Origin: Acetatifactor sp. | GTDB taxonomy: Bacteria > Bacillota > Clostridia > Lachnospirales > Lachnospiraceae | Reading direction: 5' to 3' | Length of the DNA stretch: 64,000 nt | NCBI GenBank assembly: GCA_041838515.1 | Contig: JBGYPP010000018.1 | Location: 25,034 to 89,033, forward strand | Shown here: positions 6,031-46,036 of the stretch, in pieces | Layout of the letters: each line of letters opens with the position of its first letter | How positions within the stretch are numbered: the first letter of the stretch is position 1 | Program-made: the position numbers and the translations under genes | Notes under the pieces: model-generated | Databases searched by the model: none | Seen by the model: the letters and a program-made list of their open reading frames with translations, nothing else | What the model was told of the DNA's origin: nothing

Positions 6031-7005
6031 GGCTCCCTGCTCTGGGGAGAGCCGGTATTCCCGGGGCGTATGCCCATAGCATTGTTTGAATATGCGGTGG
6101 AAGAAGCTGGTGTTGCTGTACCCTGTCATGGCCGCGATCCGGTCTATGGGCAGAGCCGTATGGCGCAGCAGTCTGGCGGCCTGCCGCAGCCTGCGCTCCT
6201 GCAACAGCTGTTTGAAGGTGTTGCCGGAGTTTTTTTTGATCAGTCTGCTCAGCGCATAGGCCGGCTGGCCGCAGATATGGGAGAGTTCCTCCAGGCTGGC
6301 TGTGGCATAGCAATGGTCTATATATCGCAACGCCTCCCAAAAAATGCCCTGTTCATATCCCTCCGGCCCCTCCTCGCTGCAGATGCGTCCTGTCTGGCCC
6401 TGCAGGAGCAGAAGCAACAGACCCATAGAGGTCTGATTGACCCTCCGGGAGGCGCCCTGGGGATGGGTCAGCGCATGGATCAGATTTTCTACGATATTTT
6501 GTATGGGCAGTATGTCAGACACCTGAAAGTATAGATGGTCTATGGAGCCGTTTTCCTCCCGCAGGGCAGACATCAGAAAATGCCAGAGCAGATTGCCCTC
6601 ATCCATCAGCAATACCGGAAGGTCAAAGAACTCCGGCAGTATGATAAAATTGACGGCCAGATCCCCATATCCGCAGGGCAGTATCTCATGGGAGGCATGG
6701 GGGTTGAGCAGCAGCAGTTCTCCGGCCTTTAGCTGTAGCCTCCTCCGGTCATTGATGATATGTGTGGTCTGTCCCTGGCACATATAGATGATCTCCAGGT
6801 AATTGTGCCTGTGGCGGGGGAAGTGCGCAAATCGAGTGTGGGGGCGCATATCCATCAGCATACCCCGCCGCAGCATTTTTTGGCTGTCCACAACGAAGGC
6901 GCTCCCGCTGGCGTACAGGGATTGCTCCACTCCGACTCCACCTTTTTGTATGGCCTCCTCCTCCGGGGATATGCGCATCAGTATGTCCAACAGGCTCTGC
7001 TGCAT
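5977..7005 (-). CDS. AraC family transcriptional regulator with N-terminal cupin sensor domain (candidate rhamnose regulator)
   Basis: Cupin-like HRHNYLEIIYMCQG...LLLLNPHASHE, and a C-terminal HTH ...IAAMTGYSNTSFFHRIFKQCYGHTPREYR. AAGGAGG SD before the ATG. Divergent from rhaA. Confidence 0.85.
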   Translation of the reverse strand: MQQSLLDILMRISPEEEAIQKGGVGVEQSLYASGSAFVVDSQKMLRRGMLMDMRPHTRFAHFPRHRHNYLEIIYMCQGQTTHIINDRRRLQLKAGELLLLNPHASHEILPCGYGDLAVNFIILPEFFDLPVLLMDEGNLLWHFLMSALREENGSIDHLYFQVSDILPIQNIVENLIHALTHPQGASRRVNQTSMGLLLLLLQGQTGRICSEEGPEGYEQGIFWEALRYIDHCYATASLEELSHICGQPAYALSRLIKKNSGNTFKQLLQERRLRQAARLLRHTALPIDRIAAMTGYSNTSFFHRIFKQCYGHTPREYRLSPEQGASNPALESGVEVPYPPGP

Positions 7006-7227: not shown

Positions 7228-8490
7228 ATGGGGGTACAGAGCAGGTATGAGGAGGCTAAGGCCATCTATGCCGGACTGGGCATAGACACGGATAAGGCCA
7301 TAGAGAGTTTGAGAAAGGCGCCGGTGTCCCTGCACTGCTGGCAGGGGGATGATGTGCGGGGATTTGACCACGAGGGGGGATTGACCGGAGGCATACAGAC
7401 CACCGGCAATTATCCGGGCCGGGCGCAGACGCCCCAGGAGCTGTTCGCCGATATGGATAAGGTTCTGCGGCTGACCCCGGGCGCAAAGAAGATCAATGTA
7501 CACGCCTGCTACGCCATATTCGGCGAGGACGGCTTTGTGGATAGGGACAAGCTGGAACCCAGGCATTTCCAGGCTTGGGTGGATTTTGCCAAGGCCCGGG
7601 GGCTGGGTCTGGATTTCAATCCCACCTTTTTCTCCCATGAAAAGGCTGCAGACGGTCTGACTCTAGCCCATCCGGATCCCCAGATCCGAGCCTTTTGGAT
7701 AGAGCATGGAAAGGCCTGCATACGCATATCCTCCTATTTTGCCGAGGAGACGGGCATACCCTGCGTAATGAATATCTGGACAGGGGATGGATTTAAGGAC
7801 ATACCGGCTGACAGGATGGGCCCCAGGCTGCGGTACAAGGAATCTATAGAGGCCATACTGTCCGAACCCTTTGATTTTGCCATGGTAAAGCCCTGCGTGG
7901 AATCCAAGGTCTTTGGCATAGGTGTGGAGTCGTATACCGTGGGATCGGGAGAATTTGCGCTGAGTTTTGCCGCTGCCCATCCGGACAAGTGTATGCCTCT
8001 GATGGACAATGGCCATTATCACCCTACGGAGATGGTGTCTGACAAGATACCCGCTCTGCTGTGCTTCTATCCGGAGATCGCCCTGCATATCACCCGTCCC
8101 GTGCGCTGGGACAGCGACCATGTGGTGATCTTTGACGATGAGACAAGGGAGATAGCCAAGGAGATCGTGCGCAATGGCGCTCTGGAGAGGGTGCATATGG
8201 CGCTGGATTACTTTGACGCCTCTATCAACAGGGTGGCTGCCTGGGCGCTGGGCTTCCGTTCTTTCCAAAAGGCACTGCTCTTTGCGCTTCTGCAGCCCAA
8301 TGACAGGGCTAGGGAGCTGCAGGAGGGCGGCTGGTGGAGCCGGCTGATGGCTCTGGCGGAGGAGGCCAAATGCCTGCCCTTTGGGGATGTGTGGGAGTAT
8401 TACTGCCAGGTATGCCAGGTCAAGGGCGAGGCGGAGTGGTTTGCCGATGTGGAGGAGTACGAGAGGGAAGTGCTGTCTTTGAGGCAGTGA
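7228..8490 (+). CDS. rhaA: L-rhamnose isomerase
   Basis: 420-aa product. YEEAKAIYAGLGIDTDKAIESLRKAPVSLHCWQGDDVRGFD and ...MDNGHYHPTE... are RhaA-like. GGAAAGGAG SD before ATG 7228. Confidence 0.9.
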   Translation: MGVQSRYEEAKAIYAGLGIDTDKAIESLRKAPVSLHCWQGDDVRGFDHEGGLTGGIQTTGNYPGRAQTPQELFADMDKVLRLTPGAKKINVHACYAIFGEDGFVDRDKLEPRHFQAWVDFAKARGLGLDFNPTFFSHEKAADGLTLAHPDPQIRAFWIEHGKACIRISSYFAEETGIPCVMNIWTGDGFKDIPADRMGPRLRYKESIEAILSEPFDFAMVKPCVESKVFGIGVESYTVGSGEFALSFAAAHPDKCMPLMDNGHYHPTEMVSDKIPALLCFYPEIALHITRPVRWDSDHVVIFDDETREIAKEIVRNGALERVHMALDYFDASINRVAAWALGFRSFQKALLFALLQPNDRARELQEGGWWSRLMALAEEAKCLPFGDVWEYYCQVCQVKGEAEWFADVEEYEREVLSLRQ

Positions 8491-38683: not shown

Positions 38684-40612
38684 ATGCACAATTATTATCG
38701 TTTGCTCAAGGAACGTTTTCCCAAAAAGACGGCGGTGCTGACAGAGCTGATCAATCTGGAGGCCATACAGCATCTGCCCAAGGGTACAGAATTTTTCGTC
38801 AGCGACCTGCATGGGGAGTATGCCGCCTTTGACTATGTGCTGCGGCATGGATCTGGCAACCTCAAGGTCAAATTGCAGGAGTGGGCGCAGGAGGTGGGGG
38901 AGGAAAATCTGGAGGTGGATATAGACTCCCTGGCTCTGTTTATCTATTATCCGGAGAAGATGATGGAGAAAAAGGCCGCCTGCCTGTCCAAGGAGCAATT
39001 GGAGGATTTGCTGGAGAGCTACATACCCTCGCTGATACGGGTGGTCAAATTCGTGGGCAGCAAATATACCCGGTCCAAGCTGCGCAAGGCCATGCAGGCC
39101 GAATTTGCCTATGTGATGGAGGAACTGGTGGCCGAGGTGGACCGGCGGGAGGATAAGGCCGGGTATTGCAGCTCCATTCTTAAGAAAATACGGAATCTGG
39201 GCCAGTTGGACGAGCTCTTTGTCGCCCTGGCCAATCTGATACAGCACCTGACCATAGATCATCTCCATGTGCTGGGGGATATATACGACCGTGGAGCCCA
39301 TCCGGACCGCATAATAGAGCGCATAGGCCAGATGTCCAATGTGGATATACAGTGGGGCAATCACGATATTACCTGGATGGGAGCGGTGGCCGGCTCCGCG
39401 CTGTGCATGATCAATGTCATACGCATAGCGGCCAGATACAACAATTTGGCCCTGCTGGAGGACAGCTACGGCATCAATCTGCGGCGGCTGGTGGATTATG
39501 CGCTGAGCTATTACACGCCTCTGCCCAGCTTTGCGCCTGTGCTGGACGGAGCCAAGGTGGGGGAAAAAGAGCAGGATGCGCTGAACTGCCTGCAACAGGC
39601 CTGTGCGGTCTTGCAGTGGAAGCTGGAGTACCAGTGCATAGAACGCAGGCCGGATTTCCGTATGGGCAGCCGGCAGGTTCTGGCCCATATAGACTGGGAG
39701 CAAGGCTTGCTGCGCCGGGGAAACAAAACTTACGTTCTCGAAAATTGGAATCCCTGCCGTATAGATCCCCAGAATCCCGGAGCCCTGATGGGGGAGGAGG
39801 AGGCGCTGATCAACCAGTTGATTCACAGCTTTCAGAGCAGTGAGCGGCTGGTGCGGCATATGGACTTTCTGATCGAAAATGGCAGCATGTATCTGACCTA
39901 TAACAAGCAGCTGCTCTTCCACGGCTGCATACCCCTGCACGAGAATGGGGATCTCAAATCCCTGCGCATAGAGGGGAAGAGTTATAGGGGCAAGGAGCTG
40001 CTGGATTTTTATGAATATCATGTACGCAAAGGATACAGGCATCCGGAGCGGCGGGAGGATTTGTCCACGGATCTGTTTTGGTATCTATGGACGGGGGAGT
40101 GTTCCTCCCTCTTTGGCAAGGCTGCTATGACCACCTTTGAGCGCTATTATATCAGCGATGCCTCCACCCACAGGGAGGAGAAAAATCCTTATTATTCCCT
40201 GCGGGATGAGGAAGAGATCTGCGAGATGATACTGGCGGAATTTGGCCTGGGTCCGGGCAGCCATATCATCAATGGGCATACGCCAGTGATAGAGAGCAAG
40301 GGGGAGAGTCCTATCAAGGCCGGGGGCCGTATGCTGGTCATAGATGGGGGCTTTGCCAAGGCCTATCAGAAAAAGACGGGCAATGCCGGCTATACCCTGG
40401 TATTTAACAGCTATGGATTTCAATTGGTGGCGCACAGGCCCTTTACCGGTGTGGAGGATGTGCTCGCCGGGAATTGTGATGTGCTGTCCACCCAGCGGCT
40501 GGTGGAGTACTCTGACAGGCGCATACTGGTAAAAGACACCAGCATAGGCCAGAGGCTGGGCAGGGAGATACAGGATCTGGAGCATCTATACCTGCATTTT
40601 GAGGAGTATTGA
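38684..40612 (+). CDS. fbp: fructose-1,6-bisphosphatase class 3
   Basis: About 642 aa. ...FFVSDLHGEYAAFDYVLR...LGDIYDRG...INGHTPV... are class III FBPase metallophosphoesterase motifs. Confidence 0.9.
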   Translation: MHNYYRLLKERFPKKTAVLTELINLEAIQHLPKGTEFFVSDLHGEYAAFDYVLRHGSGNLKVKLQEWAQEVGEENLEVDIDSLALFIYYPEKMMEKKAACLSKEQLEDLLESYIPSLIRVVKFVGSKYTRSKLRKAMQAEFAYVMEELVAEVDRREDKAGYCSSILKKIRNLGQLDELFVALANLIQHLTIDHLHVLGDIYDRGAHPDRIIERIGQMSNVDIQWGNHDITWMGAVAGSALCMINVIRIAARYNNLALLEDSYGINLRRLVDYALSYYTPLPSFAPVLDGAKVGEKEQDALNCLQQACAVLQWKLEYQCIERRPDFRMGSRQVLAHIDWEQGLLRRGNKTYVLENWNPCRIDPQNPGALMGEEEALINQLIHSFQSSERLVRHMDFLIENGSMYLTYNKQLLFHGCIPLHENGDLKSLRIEGKSYRGKELLDFYEYHVRKGYRHPERREDLSTDLFWYLWTGECSSLFGKAAMTTFERYYISDASTHREEKNPYYSLRDEEEICEMILAEFGLGPGSHIINGHTPVIESKGESPIKAGGRMLVIDGGFAKAYQKKTGNAGYTLVFNSYGFQLVAHRPFTGVEDVLAGNCDVLSTQRLVEYSDRRILVKDTSIGQRLGREIQDLEHLYLHFEEY

Positions 40613-40632
40613 CAAAGAAATGCGGATAAGGC

Positions 40633-40684
40633 AAAAAAACCGCCTAGGGATTCCGTTGCATTAGGATCCCAAGCGGTTTTTTTG
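40633..40684. terminator. bidirectional intrinsic terminator between fbp and pflA
   Basis: aaaaaaaccgc...gcggttttttt with an internal stem; A-run and T-run flank it. Confidence 0.7.
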
Positions 40685-40735
40685 TTATGCTATCGTCAGA
40701 TAGGCTGGTAATGCCCGTAGAATTCTCCAGCTGGC

Positions 40736-41521
40736 CTAAAGATTGCCCTCTGCGCTCTCCTGGGCGCGGCGCTTTTTGATGCCCAGCAGTATCTGTCTTT
40801 TCTTGGCCGGTATCAGCTCCTTGTCCATGGGAGGCGTATCCTTTAGGGGATATTCCATGCCCAGCTGCTCATACTTGGCCGTGCCCATGGTGTGGTAGGG
40901 CAGCACATCCAGGGCTGTCAGATTGGGGAACTGGCCAATGAAATACCCCAGAGCAAAGAGATCCTCGTTATCGTCAGACCAGCCGGGTACTACCACGTGG
41001 CGCACCCACATATCCACCTTGCGGGAGGCCAGATAGGCGGCAAAGGCAAAGATATTTTTGTTGGGCTGGGCCACCAGCTTTTCGTGAGTTTCCGGATCCA
41101 TGTGCTTGATATCCAGCATGACCAGATCCGTCAGCTCCATTAGCGTATCCAGCTTCTTGATCAAAAAGGCATTGGCCGGATTGTAGGTGATGCCGGAGGT
41201 GTCTATGCAGGTGTGTATGCCCTTGGCCTTGGCCAATTGAAACAGGGCCGTGACAAAATCTATCTGCATCAGAGGTTCGCCTCCGGTGACTGTGATGCCG
41301 CCGCCTTTGTAGAAATTGATATTGCGCATATACTGTTCGATGATATAGGCCGGCTCCATCCAGGTGCCGCCCTCCACATCCCAGGTGTCCGGGTTGTGGC
41401 AGTACAGACATCGCATGGGGCAGCCTTGGAGGAATACGACAAAGCGCACTCCGGGGCCGTCCACAGTGCCAAAGCTCTCCAGGGAATGTACCCTGCCTTG
41501 TATGGGCTTCGTATCGGGCAT
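40736..41521 (-). CDS. pflA: pyruvate formate-lyase activating enzyme (radical SAM)
   Basis: ESFGTVDGPGVRFVVFLQGCPMRCLYCHNPDTW (CX3CX2C) and GGGITVTGGEP. Confidence 0.95.
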   Translation of the reverse strand: MPDTKPIQGRVHSLESFGTVDGPGVRFVVFLQGCPMRCLYCHNPDTWDVEGGTWMEPAYIIEQYMRNINFYKGGGITVTGGEPLMQIDFVTALFQLAKAKGIHTCIDTSGITYNPANAFLIKKLDTLMELTDLVMLDIKHMDPETHEKLVAQPNKNIFAFAAYLASRKVDMWVRHVVVPGWSDDNEDLFALGYFIGQFPNLTALDVLPYHTMGTAKYEQLGMEYPLKDTPPMDKELIPAKKRQILLGIKKRRAQESAEGNL

Positions 41522-41540
41522 AAGGCTCCTTTCTCAAGCA

Positions 41541-41572
41541 AAAAGGCGAAGGCGCAGCTAGGGCAGCGCCTC
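41541..41572 (-). terminator. possible attenuator/partial terminator between the radical-domain gene and pflA
   Basis: On the minus strand: ggaggcgctgccctagctgcgccttc followed by gccttttt. Confidence 0.3.
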
Positions 41573-41609
41573 CGTCCTTTTGTCAAAAGATACGGCGTCC
41601 GGTGATGGA

Positions 41610-41849
41610 TTAAACGGACTCGTGGAAAGTGCGGTTGATAACATCCGTCTGCTGCTCGGGAGTCAGCTTGATAAAATTTACGGCATAGCCGGAAACACGG
41701 ATGGTCAGCTGGGGATACTTCTCAGGGTGCTTCTGGGCATCCAGCAGCATATCCCTGTTGAGTACGTTTACGTTCAGGTGATGGCCGCCCTGCTCGGCGT
41801 AACCATCCAACAGAGCCACCAAATTATCTACCTGTGCGGTGTTGTTCAT
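41610..41849 (-). CDS. free-standing glycyl-radical domain protein (GrcA-like; corresponds to the C-terminal about 70 aa of canonical PflB)
   Basis: 79 aa: ...[59 protein letters not shown] contains the RVSGYAV glycine-radical motif. Has its own AGGAGG SD 6 nt before the ATG. Confidence 0.9.
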
Positions 41850-41885
41850 ATTTTACCTCCTATAGTTGTATGCCCTGTAATGGCA

Positions 41886-42086
41886 TCAGCGGTAGTCGTC
41901 CAGGCCCTCTTGCAACGTGGGGACAGAGCAGGCCAGGGGGGTGCGTGAGCAGTCATTGCACCCCATGGTCTGGGTGGAAACCTGGTTGGAACTCTCATCG
42001 GTTTCCACATTGATATGGCCTACGCCCTTTTCCACATCCGCATCCAACATGGCGACCAACTGGTCTATGGCATTGGGATTGTTCAT
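41886..42086 (-). CDS. 66-aa hypothetical protein: its N-terminus is paralogous to the start of the glycyl-radical protein, and its tail contains three Cys
   Basis: GGAGGG SD 5 nt before the ATG. MNNPNAIDQLVAMLDADVEKGVGHINV aligns with [27 protein letters not shown] of the next ORF. The tail ...TMGCNDCSRTPLACSVP... has no RVSGYA motif. Confidence 0.6.
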   Translation of the reverse strand: MNNPNAIDQLVAMLDADVEKGVGHINVETDESSNQVSTQTMGCNDCSRTPLACSVPTLQEGLDDYR

Positions 42087-42101
42087 ATGTTCCCTCCAAA
42101 C

Positions 42102-44165
42102 TTAGGGCCTGGACTCCTCAACCTCGGTCAGATCCAGATCCAAGCTCAAATCACTGCTAAATACCTTCTCCTCCTTGCCCAAGGCGCCGGGTATGATGGT
42201 AAAGGTATTGGAGATGCCGTCCTGCGCATCCTGGAAAGGCAGCTTGGATACGGTGGCCAGGGAGGCGATGGCGCCGTGGGTATCGCGGCCGTGCATAGGG
42301 TTGGCGCCGGGTGCGAAGGGCTGGCCCTTCCTGCGGCCGTCAGGCGTATTGCCGGTGGCCTTGCCATATACCACGTTGGAGGTAATGGTCAAAATGGAGG
42401 TGGTGGGAACGCCCTTCCTGTAGGTGTGGTGCCTGCGTACGGCGGTCATAAAGCGGTGTACGATGTCCTTGGCTATCATATCCACCCTGTCGTCGTCGTT
42501 GCCGTACTTGGGGAAATCGCCGGTGGTCTTGAAGTCGGTGATTACGCCGTCATCATCACGGATAACCTCTACCTTGGCATGCTTGATGGCGGAGAGGGAG
42601 TCGGCCACGATGGAGAGGCCGGCGATACCGGTGGCGAAATACCTCTTCACATCCCTGTCGTGCAGGGCCATCTCAGCGCGCTCGTAGCAGTACTTGTCAT
42701 GCATATAGTGGATGATGTTCAGCGTGTTTACATATACATCTGCCTGCCACTCTATCATATCGGTGAACTTCTGCATTACATCGTCGAAGTCCAGCACATC
42801 CCCCTCTACAGGGCGGAAGCGGGGACCTACCTGCTTCTTGCTCACCTCGTCCACGCCGCCGTTGAGTGCATAGAGCAGGCACTTGGCCAGATTGGCGCGG
42901 GCGCCGAAGAACTGCATTTCCTTACCCACCTTCATGGAGGATACGCAGCAGGCTATGGCATAGTCGTCGCCATGGGTCACGCGCATCATATCGTCATTCT
43001 CGTACTGCAGGGAAGAAGTCTCTATGGACATCTTTGCACAGTAACGCTTCCAAGCCTGGGGCAGCCTGGTGGACCACAGCACGGTCAGGTTGGGCTCGGG
43101 GGAAGGGCCCAGCGTGGTCAGCGTATGCAGGAAACGGAAGCTCATCTTGGTAACCAGGGAACGTCCGTCTATGCCCACGCCGGCCAGGGACTCGGTAACC
43201 CATACCGGATCGCCTGCAAAAATCTGGTTGTACTCGGGTGTGCGAGCGAATTTGATCAGGCGCAGCTTCATAACGAAGTGGTCTACAAACTCCTGAATCT
43301 GCTGCTCGGTAAAGGTACCATTGGCCAGATCCCTCTCAGCGTAGATATCCAGGAAGGTGGAGGTGCGGCCCAGGGACATAGCGGCGCCGTTCTGCTCCTT
43401 TACTGCGGCCAGATAGCCGAAGTAAGTGGCCTGTATGGCCTCCTGCACGTTGGTGGAGGGCTTGGAGATATCAAAGCCGTAGGAGGCGGCCATCTGCTTC
43501 ATCTGCTTCAGGGCCACGATCTGCTCGGAAATCTCCTCACGCAGACGGATGACATCGTCTGTCATCACACGGCCGGTGGAATCCTTTTGGTTGTTCTTGT
43601 CCTCGATCAGACGGTCTATGCCATAGAGGGCCACACGGCGATAGTCGCCTATGATGCGGCCGCGGCCGTAGGCATCCGGCAGACCGGTGATAATATGGGA
43701 GGAGCGGCAGGCGCGCATATCCTCGTTGTAGGCGTCAAAGCAGCCGGCATTGTGGGTTTTTCTGTGGGTGGAGAAGAACTCGCTGATCTCCGGATCCACC
43801 TCATATCCGTTGTCCGAGCAGGCCTTCTCGGCCATGCGGATGCCGCCGTAGGGCTGCAAGGAACGCTTGAAAGGCTTGTCGGTCTGGAAACCCACGATGG
43901 TTTCCTTGCTCTTGTCCAGATATCCGGGGCCATGGGATACGATGGTGGAAATGATCTTGGTATCCATGTCCAGAACGCCGCCGGCATCCCTCTCCTGCTT
44001 TTGTAGCTCCAGAACCTGAGCCCACAGGTCATTGGTATTTTGGGTCGCCTCGGCAAGGAAAGACTCATCGCCGTCGTACGGGGTGTAGTTCCTCTGGATG
44101 AAATCCCGTACGTTGACGTCGTGCTCCCACTTGCCGCCTACAAAACCAGTCCATTCCGTTCTCAT
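42102..44165 (-). CDS. pflB: formate C-acetyltransferase (pyruvate formate-lyase) catalytic core lacking the C-terminal glycyl-radical domain
   Basis: 687 aa from ATG 44165 (AGGAGG SD). PFL-like throughout (...RVALYGID..., ...[10 protein letters not shown]... active-site Cys pair, ...[10 protein letters not shown]...[20 protein letters not shown]), then ends in the acidic tail [19 protein letters not shown]. Confidence 0.9.
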
Positions 44166-44377
44166 TGCAGGTCGCCTCCTATGTTTGGGAAATGCTAGTA
44201 AACAGTGTCTTGTATACAATCTAATTATAGGTAGAAAAAGCGGGCCAGTCAATGGATATTCTGTACTTTTTGCAATACATGACAAAAAAATATCAGTAAA
44301 AAATTGGGCAGGCCTTATATAGCCCCGCTTGCCAATCCACAGCCTATGGATTAAAGTAATAAGGAGAAAATGCGGGG

Positions 44378-46036
44378 GTGGAAACGGTGGCGCTTTTTGG
44401 ACAAACAAGGCATGGCTTGGGCAGATTATGGCTGAGAGCATGGGCGTGGCTGGGCGGCATTGCGGAGCCGGCGGCGCGTTGGGGCATGGCCCTGGCAGGC
44501 CTCCCGGTGTGGATTTTTCTGTGTTGGTACAGTTTTCGTTACAGCTATCTGGAGGGAGTGCATGTACCGGAGAAGCTAAGCCTGGTCAAGGACAGCATGG
44601 GCCGCCATATGCTGGGCATTTTGGCTCTGGCGCTGGCGTGGGGGGGGCTGCTGCGGCTGGAAAGGCGCTGCTCCAAGGCTCGGCTGGAACTGGGGGCGAG
44701 GAGTTTGGCTCTGCTGGCTGTGGCCTGGCATCTGGCCTGGGGCCTGTGGTGGATCTATTCCTCAGATAAGGTGCCGGGAGGGGATCAGGCCTTTCTCTAC
44801 GGCGGCGCCAGCTACCTGTTGGAGGGTTCCAGGACATTTTTGGGTCTGGGGGGATATCTGGAGATGTACCCCCATCAGCTGCCCGCAGTGTTTGTCGTGC
44901 AGTCCGTATTCTCCCTGGTGGGCACTTACCAATATCCTTTTTTGCAATTGTGCAATGTGCTGTTTGCCGCTGGTACCGTGGGTCTTGCCTATGGCCTGCT
45001 GGAGGCCTGGGGGGCAGGCTTTGCGGCCAAGGCGGCATATGCGCTTCTGGCCCTGGGCCTGCAGCCCCTGGTGTATTACACCTCCTTTGTCTATGGGGAG
45101 TTGGGCTTTTGCTTCTTTGCGCTGGCAGCCCTGTGCTGCTTTGTCTATTTGGACAAAAAGGGGCGGCCGGCCATACTGTCGCTGATGGGAATTTGTCTGT
45201 GGCTGATGTGGGCGCTGAGACCGGCTGGCCGCATATTCCTCCTGGCCTTTTGTCTATGCCTTGGCCTGTGGGCGCTGAGGCGGGGGAGGCTGGGGGTTCT
45301 GGCTCTGGCCCTGTTCTTTTTCCTGATACCCAATATCACGCTCTGGGGCCTGCGAGCCTATTACTACCCTCCCGGCTCGGCTGAGTATTATACCGGAGGC
45401 ATGCCGGTAGAGGGCTGGCTGGCGCTGGGCATAGAGGAATCGCCCATGGGCCCCGGCTGGTACAACCACGATGTAGTGCGCAATTATTACCTGGCGGAAT
45501 GTGACCCCTATGAGGCGGCCAAGATCTATAGGCAGCAGATAGAGGCTCGTCTGGCCTTTTTCCGGGACTATCCCGGGGAGGCCGGACAGTTTTACAAGGA
45601 TAAGATATTGAGTCAGTGGATAGCGCCTCTGTATCAGGGCCTGTTCTTTGGCTCTCAGCCGGACCAGGGCAAGCAGATTCCGGAGGGAAGTCTGTTGGCC
45701 TATGTATACAGCCACGGCGGGCAATTGCAACAGTGGGCGGATGTGTGGCAGTTCCTGGTCTATGGCGGAGTCCTTTGCTTTTTTGCGGGCCTGCCGGCGC
45801 TGGGGCGCAGATCCATACCCCTGCTGGTTCTGCCTATGGCCCTGTTGGGCACCTTTGTGTTTTCCCTTTTCTGGGAGGCCAAGGCCAGGTATATTTTTCC
45901 CAGCTATGTTTTGATGTATCCCATGGCGGCCCTGGGGCTGGAGGCGGCCTTTGGCCTGCTCCAGTCGGGCTGGCGCAGATGGTTTTGGAAGGGGGCGGAG
46001 GGTGGAAAAGCTGAGCGTAATCGTGCCTTGCTTTAA
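44378..46036 (+). CDS. GT-C fold membrane glycosyltransferase (ArnT/PMT, GT39/83-like)
   Basis: 552-aa polytopic membrane protein. The early extracytoplasmic loop ...[19 protein letters not shown] resembles the GT-C acidic loop. The start is uncertain: GTG 44378, while the AAGGAG SD at 44361 is closer to an out-of-frame ATG at 44370. Confidence 0.55.

Follow-up and report, generated by a model that had tools for sequence, protein, structure and literature searches.

A small protein with a GrcA3-like N-terminus and a cysteine module, encoded in a split pyruvate formate-lyase operon of Acetatifactor sp.

The 64,000-nucleotide stretch of Acetatifactor sp. DNA analysed here (the window; assembly GCA_041838515.1, contig JBGYPP010000018.1, positions 25,034 to 89,033) carries a four-gene minus-strand operon in the order pyruvate formate-lyase (PFL) core, 66-aa protein, 79-aa GrcA3-type glycyl-radical protein and PFL activase. 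The 66-aa open reading frame (ORF; 41886..42086), which lies between the core and the GrcA3 gene, is a genuine gene, under strong purifying selection and tied to the split PFL. Judged from sequence, its product is probably a trans-encoded subunit that brings a cysteine module to act on the split enzyme. Of all glycyl radical enzymes PFL is the most widespread, and it has a central place in the fermentation of gut and rumen Lachnospiraceae. In a large clade the PFL core and its radical subunit are separate proteins, and these split PFLs nearly always come with an extra two-Cys module, in cis or in trans, the trans form bearing the docking handle of the radical subunit. The question thus shifts from an odd ORF to the function of the Cys module in split PFLs.

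A conserved gene between the two parts of a split enzyme

The PFL core, or large subunit (42102..44165, minus strand, 687 aa), ends before barrel strand beta10 and carries its catalytic Cys-Cys pair at C406/C407. It matches TIGR01255 over model positions 7-670 of 744 (1080 bits), as well as Pfam PFL-like and the first half only of Gly_radical. Aligned to E. coli PflB, its residues 2-674 correspond to 8-686. The 79-aa protein (41610..41849, minus strand), whose radical glycine G54 lies inside RVSGYA, scores 158 bits against NF038360 (autonomous glycyl radical cofactor GrcA3), a value equal to the cutoff. It matches Gly_radical over positions 50-106, i.e. the second half, and its residues 7-78 align to E. 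coli PflB 682-758. These alignments of core and GrcA3 to PflB indicate that PFL is split just ahead of the helix and the beta10 strand that precede the glycine loop.

The original prediction, made from the letters alone, had placed a 66-aa ORF between these two genes, 15 nt after the core stop and with a GGAGGG Shine-Dalgarno sequence 5 nt before its ATG. Coordinates and translation were confirmed: the core ends with a stop codon at 42104-42102, the ATG of the ORF follows 15 nt beyond it, at 42086, and the Shine-Dalgarno sequence occupies 42092..42097 on the minus strand. The claimed match of its N-terminus to the radical protein was also reproduced, residues 1-27 aligning without gaps to residues 1-27 with 14/27 identities (BLASTP E = 1e-7, single comparison). 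It had further been claimed that the other frames do not hold the missing radical domain, and this agrees with a tblastn search of the 79-aa protein against the window (E <= 0.01), in which only frame-1 codons 1-27 were recovered.

When 5.8 billion proteins were searched with the 66-aa protein, matches came from 1011 clusters at 90% identity. The best 120 of these matches measured 61-75 aa, those sampled aligned over their full length, none had a Pfam domain, and the named ones were called 'hypothetical protein'. A profile search of 1.84 billion representatives yielded 224 clusters at 50% identity, and a scan with one genome per species found homologues in at least 575 species genomes; members are generally 60-80 aa long. 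The 80 loci listed were overwhelmingly from Lachnospiraceae, including Acetatifactor, Kineothrix and Roseburia sp., and a divergent branch of the family was found in the Oscillospiraceae species Ca. Egerieicola pullicola. There is no model for this family in Pfam or NCBIfam; it is so far unannotated and merits both a name and a model.

The homologue and synteny search that the original prediction had proposed was carried out on 85 loci fetched via the small protein, divergent members and Ca. Egerieicola included. The order core, small ORF, GrcA3 was conserved in 85/85 of them, with the activase usually next. A Shine-Dalgarno-like sequence stood upstream of the small ORF in 77/82 loci, and the gap between core and small ORF was short and variable (median 33 nt). 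Because the small ORF shares the frame of the core in only 21/74 loci, it appears to start translation independently and not to arise as a readthrough product. In the window the ORF does lie in the frame of the core, with only TAA and 15 nt between them (42087-42104). This shared frame looks coincidental, since the frame relation is random in relatives and no natural fusion of core and small protein was found (a query of the last 100 core residues plus the small protein gave no match spanning both).

The selection analysis, likewise proposed beforehand, indicated purifying selection, and neutral evolution was not seen. Synonymous sites of the small gene are saturated (pS, the proportion of synonymous differences, ~0.78), and its invariant residues are spelled by many synonymous codons. 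The ratio of non-synonymous to synonymous differences (pN/pS) is 0.26 overall, 0.28 for residues 1-27, 0.52 for the following linker and 0.076 for residues 40-65; for comparison, it is 0.16 in GrcA3.

Handle and cysteine module

Three parts can be distinguished in the 66-aa protein, all encoded on the minus strand. A handle (residues 1-27; 42006..42086), consisting of a helix and a beta10-like strand (G-x-G-H-x-N-V), is followed by a variable acidic linker (residues 28-39; 41970..42005; up to ~60 aa in some homologues) and by the Cys module (residues 40-66; 41889..41969; TMGCNDCSRTPLACSVPTLQEGLDDYR). Profile-profile comparison of the small family with the GrcA3 family by hhalign gave a probability of 96% (E = 3.6e-9), the similarity being confined to residues 1-33. 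The handle is homologous to GrcA3 residues 1-27 and to E. coli PflB ~682-709, and L10, L14, D15, G21, H24, N26 and V27, conserved in the small family, are the positions conserved in GrcA3. Of the beta10 pattern G-G-x-H-L-N-V, by which the protein would dock on the PFL core, G21, G23, H24, N26 and V27 are conserved and align to GrcA3 and to PflB 701-709. The R-V-S-G-[YF]-A loop and C-terminal helix of the GrcA type are found in the 79-aa neighbour and are absent from the 66-aa protein. The latter scores 18.7 bits against NF038360, versus a cutoff of 158, over residues 5-29 only. It has no match to Pfam Gly_radical (PF01228) above the gathering threshold, and sub-threshold matches were seen in 5/37 family members (best E = 0.005). 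GrcA/YfiD, including GrcA3, is thus like the 66-aa protein in being a small helix-plus-beta10 protein, separate from the large subunit, with a homologous handle that is expected to dock in the radical-domain socket; unlike GrcA/YfiD, the 66-aa protein has no glycine radical loop, no RVSGY and no C-terminal helix, and carries an unrelated Cys module in their place. Since it lacks the glycine loop and RVSGY, it cannot supply the radical.

A model obtained with AlphaFold2 from 125 sequences (predicted local distance difference test score, pLDDT, 71) shows residues 4-19 as a helix, 24-30/35-41 as a hairpin and the Cys module as coil; with 26 sequences the model was largely disordered (pLDDT 54). 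The predicted fold fits a peptide that would become fully ordered on a partner. A Foldseek search of the model against the Protein Data Bank (PDB) returned nothing significant (best E = 2.5), and the family profile found no PDB sequence even at E <= 10.

The helix segment is present in three versions in the operon, namely in the core tail, in the small protein and in GrcA3. Split cores keep the pattern V-F-x-G-D-[IL]-x-[ILV]-x-L in this part of the tail, the conserved residues being F669, G671 (S in the window), D672 and L677. At this position the E. coli helix reads EVRKTNLAGLM, unlike that of the split cores. A MAFFT alignment had also suggested a similarity of the small proteins to core residues 141-166 (G-C-x-D...A-C...G-L-x-D). 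Profile-profile comparison finds nothing there, and the similarity was put down to chance.

The original prediction described the tail of the protein as carrying three cysteines with a CxxC, as lacking the RVSGYA motif and as unrelated past the segment that matches the radical protein. C43-x-x-C46 and C53 are indeed present here, without RVSGY. Across the family, only C46 and C53 are general, while C43, and with it the CxxC, belongs to a subgroup. The claim of unrelatedness holds in so far as there is no radical-domain homology past residue 33; the module does have relatives, in the C-terminal tails of other split PFL cores. In the Lachnospiraceae subgroup the segment T-M-G-C-x-D-C-S-R-T-P-L-A-C-S-V-P-T-L-x-x-G-L-D-D-Y is nearly invariant. 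In the whole family P56 alone is invariant, and D15, G21, G23, H24, N26, C46, A52 and C53 are kept in at least 90% of members. The general two-Cys motif reads [D]-C-x(3-7)-A-C-x-[VI]-P-[TN]-L-x-x-G-[LI]-D, with acidic residues after it; counting small proteins and core tails together, the spacing between the two cysteines ranges from 1 to 7 residues. The 66-aa protein carries the proposed family motif C-x(n)-A-C-x-x-P-[TN]-[LIV]-x-x-G-[LI]-[DE] at its C-terminus.

Two-gene split PFLs, which have no small gene, carry the same motif, D-C-x(n)-A-C-x-x-P-[TN]-L-x-x-G-L-D, at the end of their large subunit. To avoid the bias of retrieval via the small protein, 80 metagenomic loci were fetched via GrcA3. 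They comprised 39 loci with core, small ORF and GrcA3; 19 with a split core and GrcA3 without the small ORF, three of them ordered core, activase, GrcA3; 16 with GrcA3 and no core within 1.5 kb upstream (a shorter span in three limited by contig ends); and 6 with an unsplit PFL. Where the small gene is present, the core tails after ALGK are short, acidic and free of Cys, e.g. EDQVFAGDIELDLNK; the corresponding acidic Cys-free tail of the window's core is encoded at 42105..42173 on the minus strand. Where the small gene is absent, the tails often carry its motif at their end, as in loci L142 (...GDLEVELSGFDGCCEGGACDSPTLFEGLDRE) and L164 (...GDLDIDDFGDDCGNNACSIPNLLQGLDRD); those of L158, L165, L167, L169 and L153 have weaker versions of the motif, and several other tails are short and Cys-rich. 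A hidden Markov model of residues 38-66 scored 27.4 bits on L164 and 20.7 bits on L142, versus 12.3 bits for the best of 2900 shuffled tails, and hhalign of the small family against core C-termini gave a probability of ~92% (E ~7e-7). The module was found fused to the core in the database proteins P0478, P0498, P0508, P0535, P0546 and P0561 as well, the fused cases including NCBI entries named 'formate acetyltransferase, partial [Clostridia bacterium]' (...GDIEVDLDCSNGACSTPTLFEGLDDKQ). In such two-gene cores (L142, L164, P0478, P0498, P0535, P0546, P0561) the motif stands at the extreme C-terminus, fused after the G-D-[IL]-x-[IV]-x-L segment, whereas in the window it has a gene of its own and is joined to a GrcA3-like handle by a linker.

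A module in the core tail and the small gene exclude each other. Cysteine occurs in the core tail in 0/120 loci with the small gene and in 18/19 split loci without it, 13 of which have at least two Cys. Each split locus thus has one module, in the core tail or in the small protein, save for L137, a split locus with neither the small gene nor a tail Cys, and three loci of the order core, activase, GrcA3. In these three (L121, L126 and L136), which represent a third architecture without the small ORF, the only Cys of the tail DCQVFTGDLDADDLGLDIDDLIKLQQ directly follows ALGK.

A natural Cys-rich tail is also met among solved structures. Chain A of PDB entry 38lb (739 aa) and chain A of 38la (687 aa), both named 'formate acetyltransferase', are close homologues of the core at 1135 and 1098 bits respectively, and both are without the glycine radical domain. 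The chain of 38la ends right after SLGKED/ALGKED, and that of 38lb has a natural Cys-rich tail (…GECDMCEMKELDDVSKIDFKTVDFTIENKPDCACAADASAKEGCED; …PDCACAADASAKEGCED), a divergent variant without P-[TN]-L. No PDB chain resembles the small protein, a GrcA3 query retrieved neither 38lb nor 38la, and no paper citing the two codes was found.

Two long core homologues, P0123 (805 aa) and P0124 (821 aa), contain internal tandem duplications, by which they were judged to be assembly artefacts and not true longer cores; the tail of P0124 bears Cys (…EPDCACCEPNLSVDEAE). A further candidate relative, P0307 (1035 aa), gave 14 profile matches through a repeat of C-T-G-C-S-K-D-A-L-I-I-C-S-L-P-M-L and is probably an unrelated repeat protein.

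Possible functions of the small protein

The two halves of the 66-aa protein have two different homologues, GrcA3 and the tails of split cores, and it is on this ground that the protein is regarded as a chimera. The leading explanation is that this chimera of handle, linker and Cys module serves as an accessory subunit of a naturally split PFL, most likely by capping the radical-domain socket, and in our judgement the odds for it are even; the specific mechanism by which it would act as a cap or placeholder, as follows, is more tentative and falls somewhat short of that balance. In a core protomer free of GrcA3, the handle would seat the small protein in the radical-domain socket, where it would supply beta10 and complete the barrel. 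The Cys module, whether in cis or in trans, would then cap or occupy the region near the socket and the catalytic C406/C407. The empty core would be stabilised, and its active-site thiols protected or regulated, until an intact GrcA3 takes over. The small protein would in this way serve as a 'blank fuse' in a PFL whose radical fuse can be exchanged. The idea of a decoy or placeholder at the docking site, already put forward in the original prediction, is still the most economical reading, and it is preferred because it fits both architectures with the fewest assumptions.

Studies of E. coli PFL lend plausibility to such a cap. It was demonstrated previously that the oxygen-cleaved enzyme is prone to proteolysis and that beta10 is duplicated in its spare part YfiD; a truncated PFL (1-695) reaches full activity after activation of a radical domain provided in trans (PMC8683613). 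The cleaved enzyme retains segment 696-733, made up of beta10 and the half loop that cleavage leaves, which has no radical glycine, coexists or exchanges with the trans radical domain and affects its binding and activation (PMC8683613). This segment is a covalent damage remnant without a Cys module, while the 66-aa protein is the product of a dedicated gene. The sensitivity of cleaved PFL to proteolysis, its rescue in trans and the effect of the beta10 remnant (PMC8683613) together make a cap or placeholder plausible; the remnant effect also supports the main alternative, a third subunit bound together with GrcA3, which is considered below.

Several points weigh against the cap. The covalently attached module of two-gene enzymes coexists with GrcA3, and the module may therefore act with the radical subunit bound and not in its absence. 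It is not evident why a dedicated placeholder would be needed, since unactivated GrcA3 could itself fill the socket. Nor is the module universal, as can be seen from the 16 GrcA3 genes that stand alone and the three single-Cys loci of the order core, activase, GrcA3. It is also conceivable, though unlikely, that split PFLs are 'replaceable-fuse' enzymes with the module as a built-in safety device, its invariant cysteine entering the position of the glycine loop, beside the catalytic Cys-Cys, whenever the radical subunit is missing, damaged or has flipped out, and there capping the site reversibly by a disulfide or quenching a radical; a related variant has the small protein permanently filling the silent protomer of a half-sites-reactive dimer (alpha2-beta-gamma).

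Among the alternatives, the small protein may be a third subunit that binds together with GrcA3 and promotes GrcA3 docking, its activation by the PFL activating enzyme, or both, with the handle placed like the displaced E. coli 696-733 remnant and the Cys module in contact with GrcA3 or the activase. Once residues 696-733 are removed in E. coli, YfiD binding can no longer be measured and radical installation falls 32-fold (PMC8683613). As this segment is needed for YfiD binding and activation, two copies of beta10 coexist in the working E. coli complex. That the activase is usually part of the operon, and that the module sits on the core and hence coexists with GrcA3 in two-gene split PFLs, would also suit a co-bound subunit. 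However, the handle keeps the same positions as the docking segment of GrcA3, which suggests the same site, and GrcA3 is much more conserved than the small protein, with no sign of a specific interface between them; we hold this arrangement to be possible but rather doubtful. Another alternative is a small subunit that binds a metal or Fe-S cluster, in the manner of the gamma subunit of 4-hydroxyphenylacetate decarboxylase (HPAD), the beta and gamma subunits of benzylsuccinate synthase (BSS) or the delta subunit of MASS, with the cysteines and perhaps H24 or core residues as ligands; a metal- or Fe-S-binding subunit comparable to those of HPAD and BSS had already been considered in the original prediction. 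The small subunits of those enzymes (HPAD-gamma, BSS-beta/gamma and MASS-beta/gamma/delta) are likewise small Cys-containing proteins encoded beside a catalytic subunit, with roles that are poorly understood (PMC13450708). The subgroup of the window has three Cys and an invariant His, and several core tails are Cys-rich, e.g. DCGCCEGTCQ. The known subunits, however, are HiPIP-like or rubredoxin-like, have four ligands per metal site, are not paralogues of a radical domain and have not been described for PFL, and neither the four ligands (Cys4 or Cys3His per site) nor a fold of either kind is found in the 66-aa protein. Its family-wide cysteines are only C46 and C53, and H24 is conserved in GrcA3 and E. 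coli PflB too, as a residue of beta10. The spacing of 1 to 7 residues between the cysteines, the modelling of this region as coil, and the lack of Pfam, NCBIfam or PDB sequence similarity and of a significant fold match argue in the same direction. The analogy is weak, and metal binding by the module seems improbable.

A more radical proposal is that A52-C53 replaces the S-G of the glycine loop, so that the protein accepts, stores or quenches the radical or acts as a redox switch by a disulfide with the catalytic cysteines. C53 most often lies 30 residues from the beta10 His (56/82 loci), the same distance as from His to the radical Gly in 84/84 GrcA3 proteins, and when the DNA is aligned the codons for A-C-S-V fall opposite those for S-G-Y-A with a single difference in each; enzymes with a non-glycine residue at the radical site do exist (PMC11528403). 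Against this, profile homology to GrcA3 ends at residue 33, the His-to-Cys spacing varies from 26 to 39 and linkers reach ~60 aa in some members, the core-fused module lies ~15 residues after ALGK with no beta10 between, and the activase recognition motif RV-x-G is absent. The varying spacing and the fused versions without beta10 leave a cysteine in place of the radical glycine a minority hypothesis, and quite an improbable one. The possibility that the ORF is a spurious call or the non-functional remnant of a partial duplication is extremely slight. Its N-terminal 27 residues partially copy the neighbouring gene, the protein is unannotated, and many sources have no gene call there. Against these stand its full-length conservation in hundreds of species, the saturated synonymous divergence, the pN/pS of 0.08 in the tail, the conserved ribosome-binding site and a distribution complementary to that of the core-tail module. 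The suggestion of a decaying duplication in the original prediction is likewise refuted by the conservation and by the pN/pS of 0.08 in the Cys motif. A precursor of a peptide that is made on the ribosome and modified after translation (RiPP), or another peptide substrate of a radical S-adenosylmethionine (SAM) enzyme, was considered and rejected, as the only neighbouring radical SAM protein is the PFL activating enzyme (TIGR02493) and the context is always a split PFL.

The architecture with a small gene may have arisen by a tandem duplication in a two-gene locus, taking in 'module, stop, intergenic region, ATG, GrcA3 residues 1-30'. The three-gene form would follow from a later loss of the core's own copy of the module; a reverse route by deletion would be equally simple.

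With respect to earlier work, a 2026 review of the superfamily describes accessory small subunits for HPAD, BSS and MASS only (PMC13450708). No paper was found on naturally split PFL, GrcA3 or the 66-aa protein, nor any that describes the Cys tails of split PFL cores. What is already known is the NCBI model for GrcA3, and the two PDB entries, dated 2026, show that split-type cores are under study. We rate the 66-aa protein, on its sequence, as a putative paralogue of a trans-acting radical domain turned accessory subunit of a glycyl radical enzyme; the genuinely new part is the Cys module in cis or trans. These findings bear on the exchange of radical domains in trans, on the protection of an empty or oxygen-damaged core and on the enforcement of half-sites reactivity. 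If thiol-based protection or exchange by the module were true, it would be the first described for any glycyl radical enzyme.

Other features of the operon and of related loci

The last gene of the operon encodes the pyruvate formate-lyase activating enzyme, a radical SAM protein (40736..41521, minus strand; TIGR02493, 296 bits; Pfam Radical_SAM and Fer4_12). The core start was set at ATG 44165, which gives 687 aa and not the 779 aa of the mechanical ORF list, because homologues measure 679-687 aa. The mechanical ORF overextends the core by 92 codons upstream (44166-44441), and a promoter-like site lies inside this extension: TTGACT, a 17-nt spacer and TATAAT (44224..44252, minus strand; 11/12 matches), ~60 nt upstream of the core ATG and a pattern match only. 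A consensus scan found a terminator-like hairpin 3' of the activase gene (40539..40552, minus strand), again a pattern match only, and none on the same strand inside the operon. No Rfam match was found within 40500-44800.

GrcA3-type genes that stand alone in the metagenome loci L091-L093, L096, L103, L105, L109, L111-L114, L116, L143 and L146 are 80-89% identical to that of the window. No PFL core lies in the ~970-1500 nt upstream of them, and they may be true spare parts or partners of a distant core. The gene in L093 has a Crp/Fnr-type regulator and a CxxCxxCC-domain protein before it and an aldo-keto reductase after it. In L003 a DUF3795 protein (6511-6945) separates GrcA3 from the activase, which is followed by a small 2x[4Fe-4S] ferredoxin (8150-8320); in L005 a thioredoxin-domain protein is encoded upstream of the core. 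The neighbours seen in L003 and L005 are not conserved across loci.

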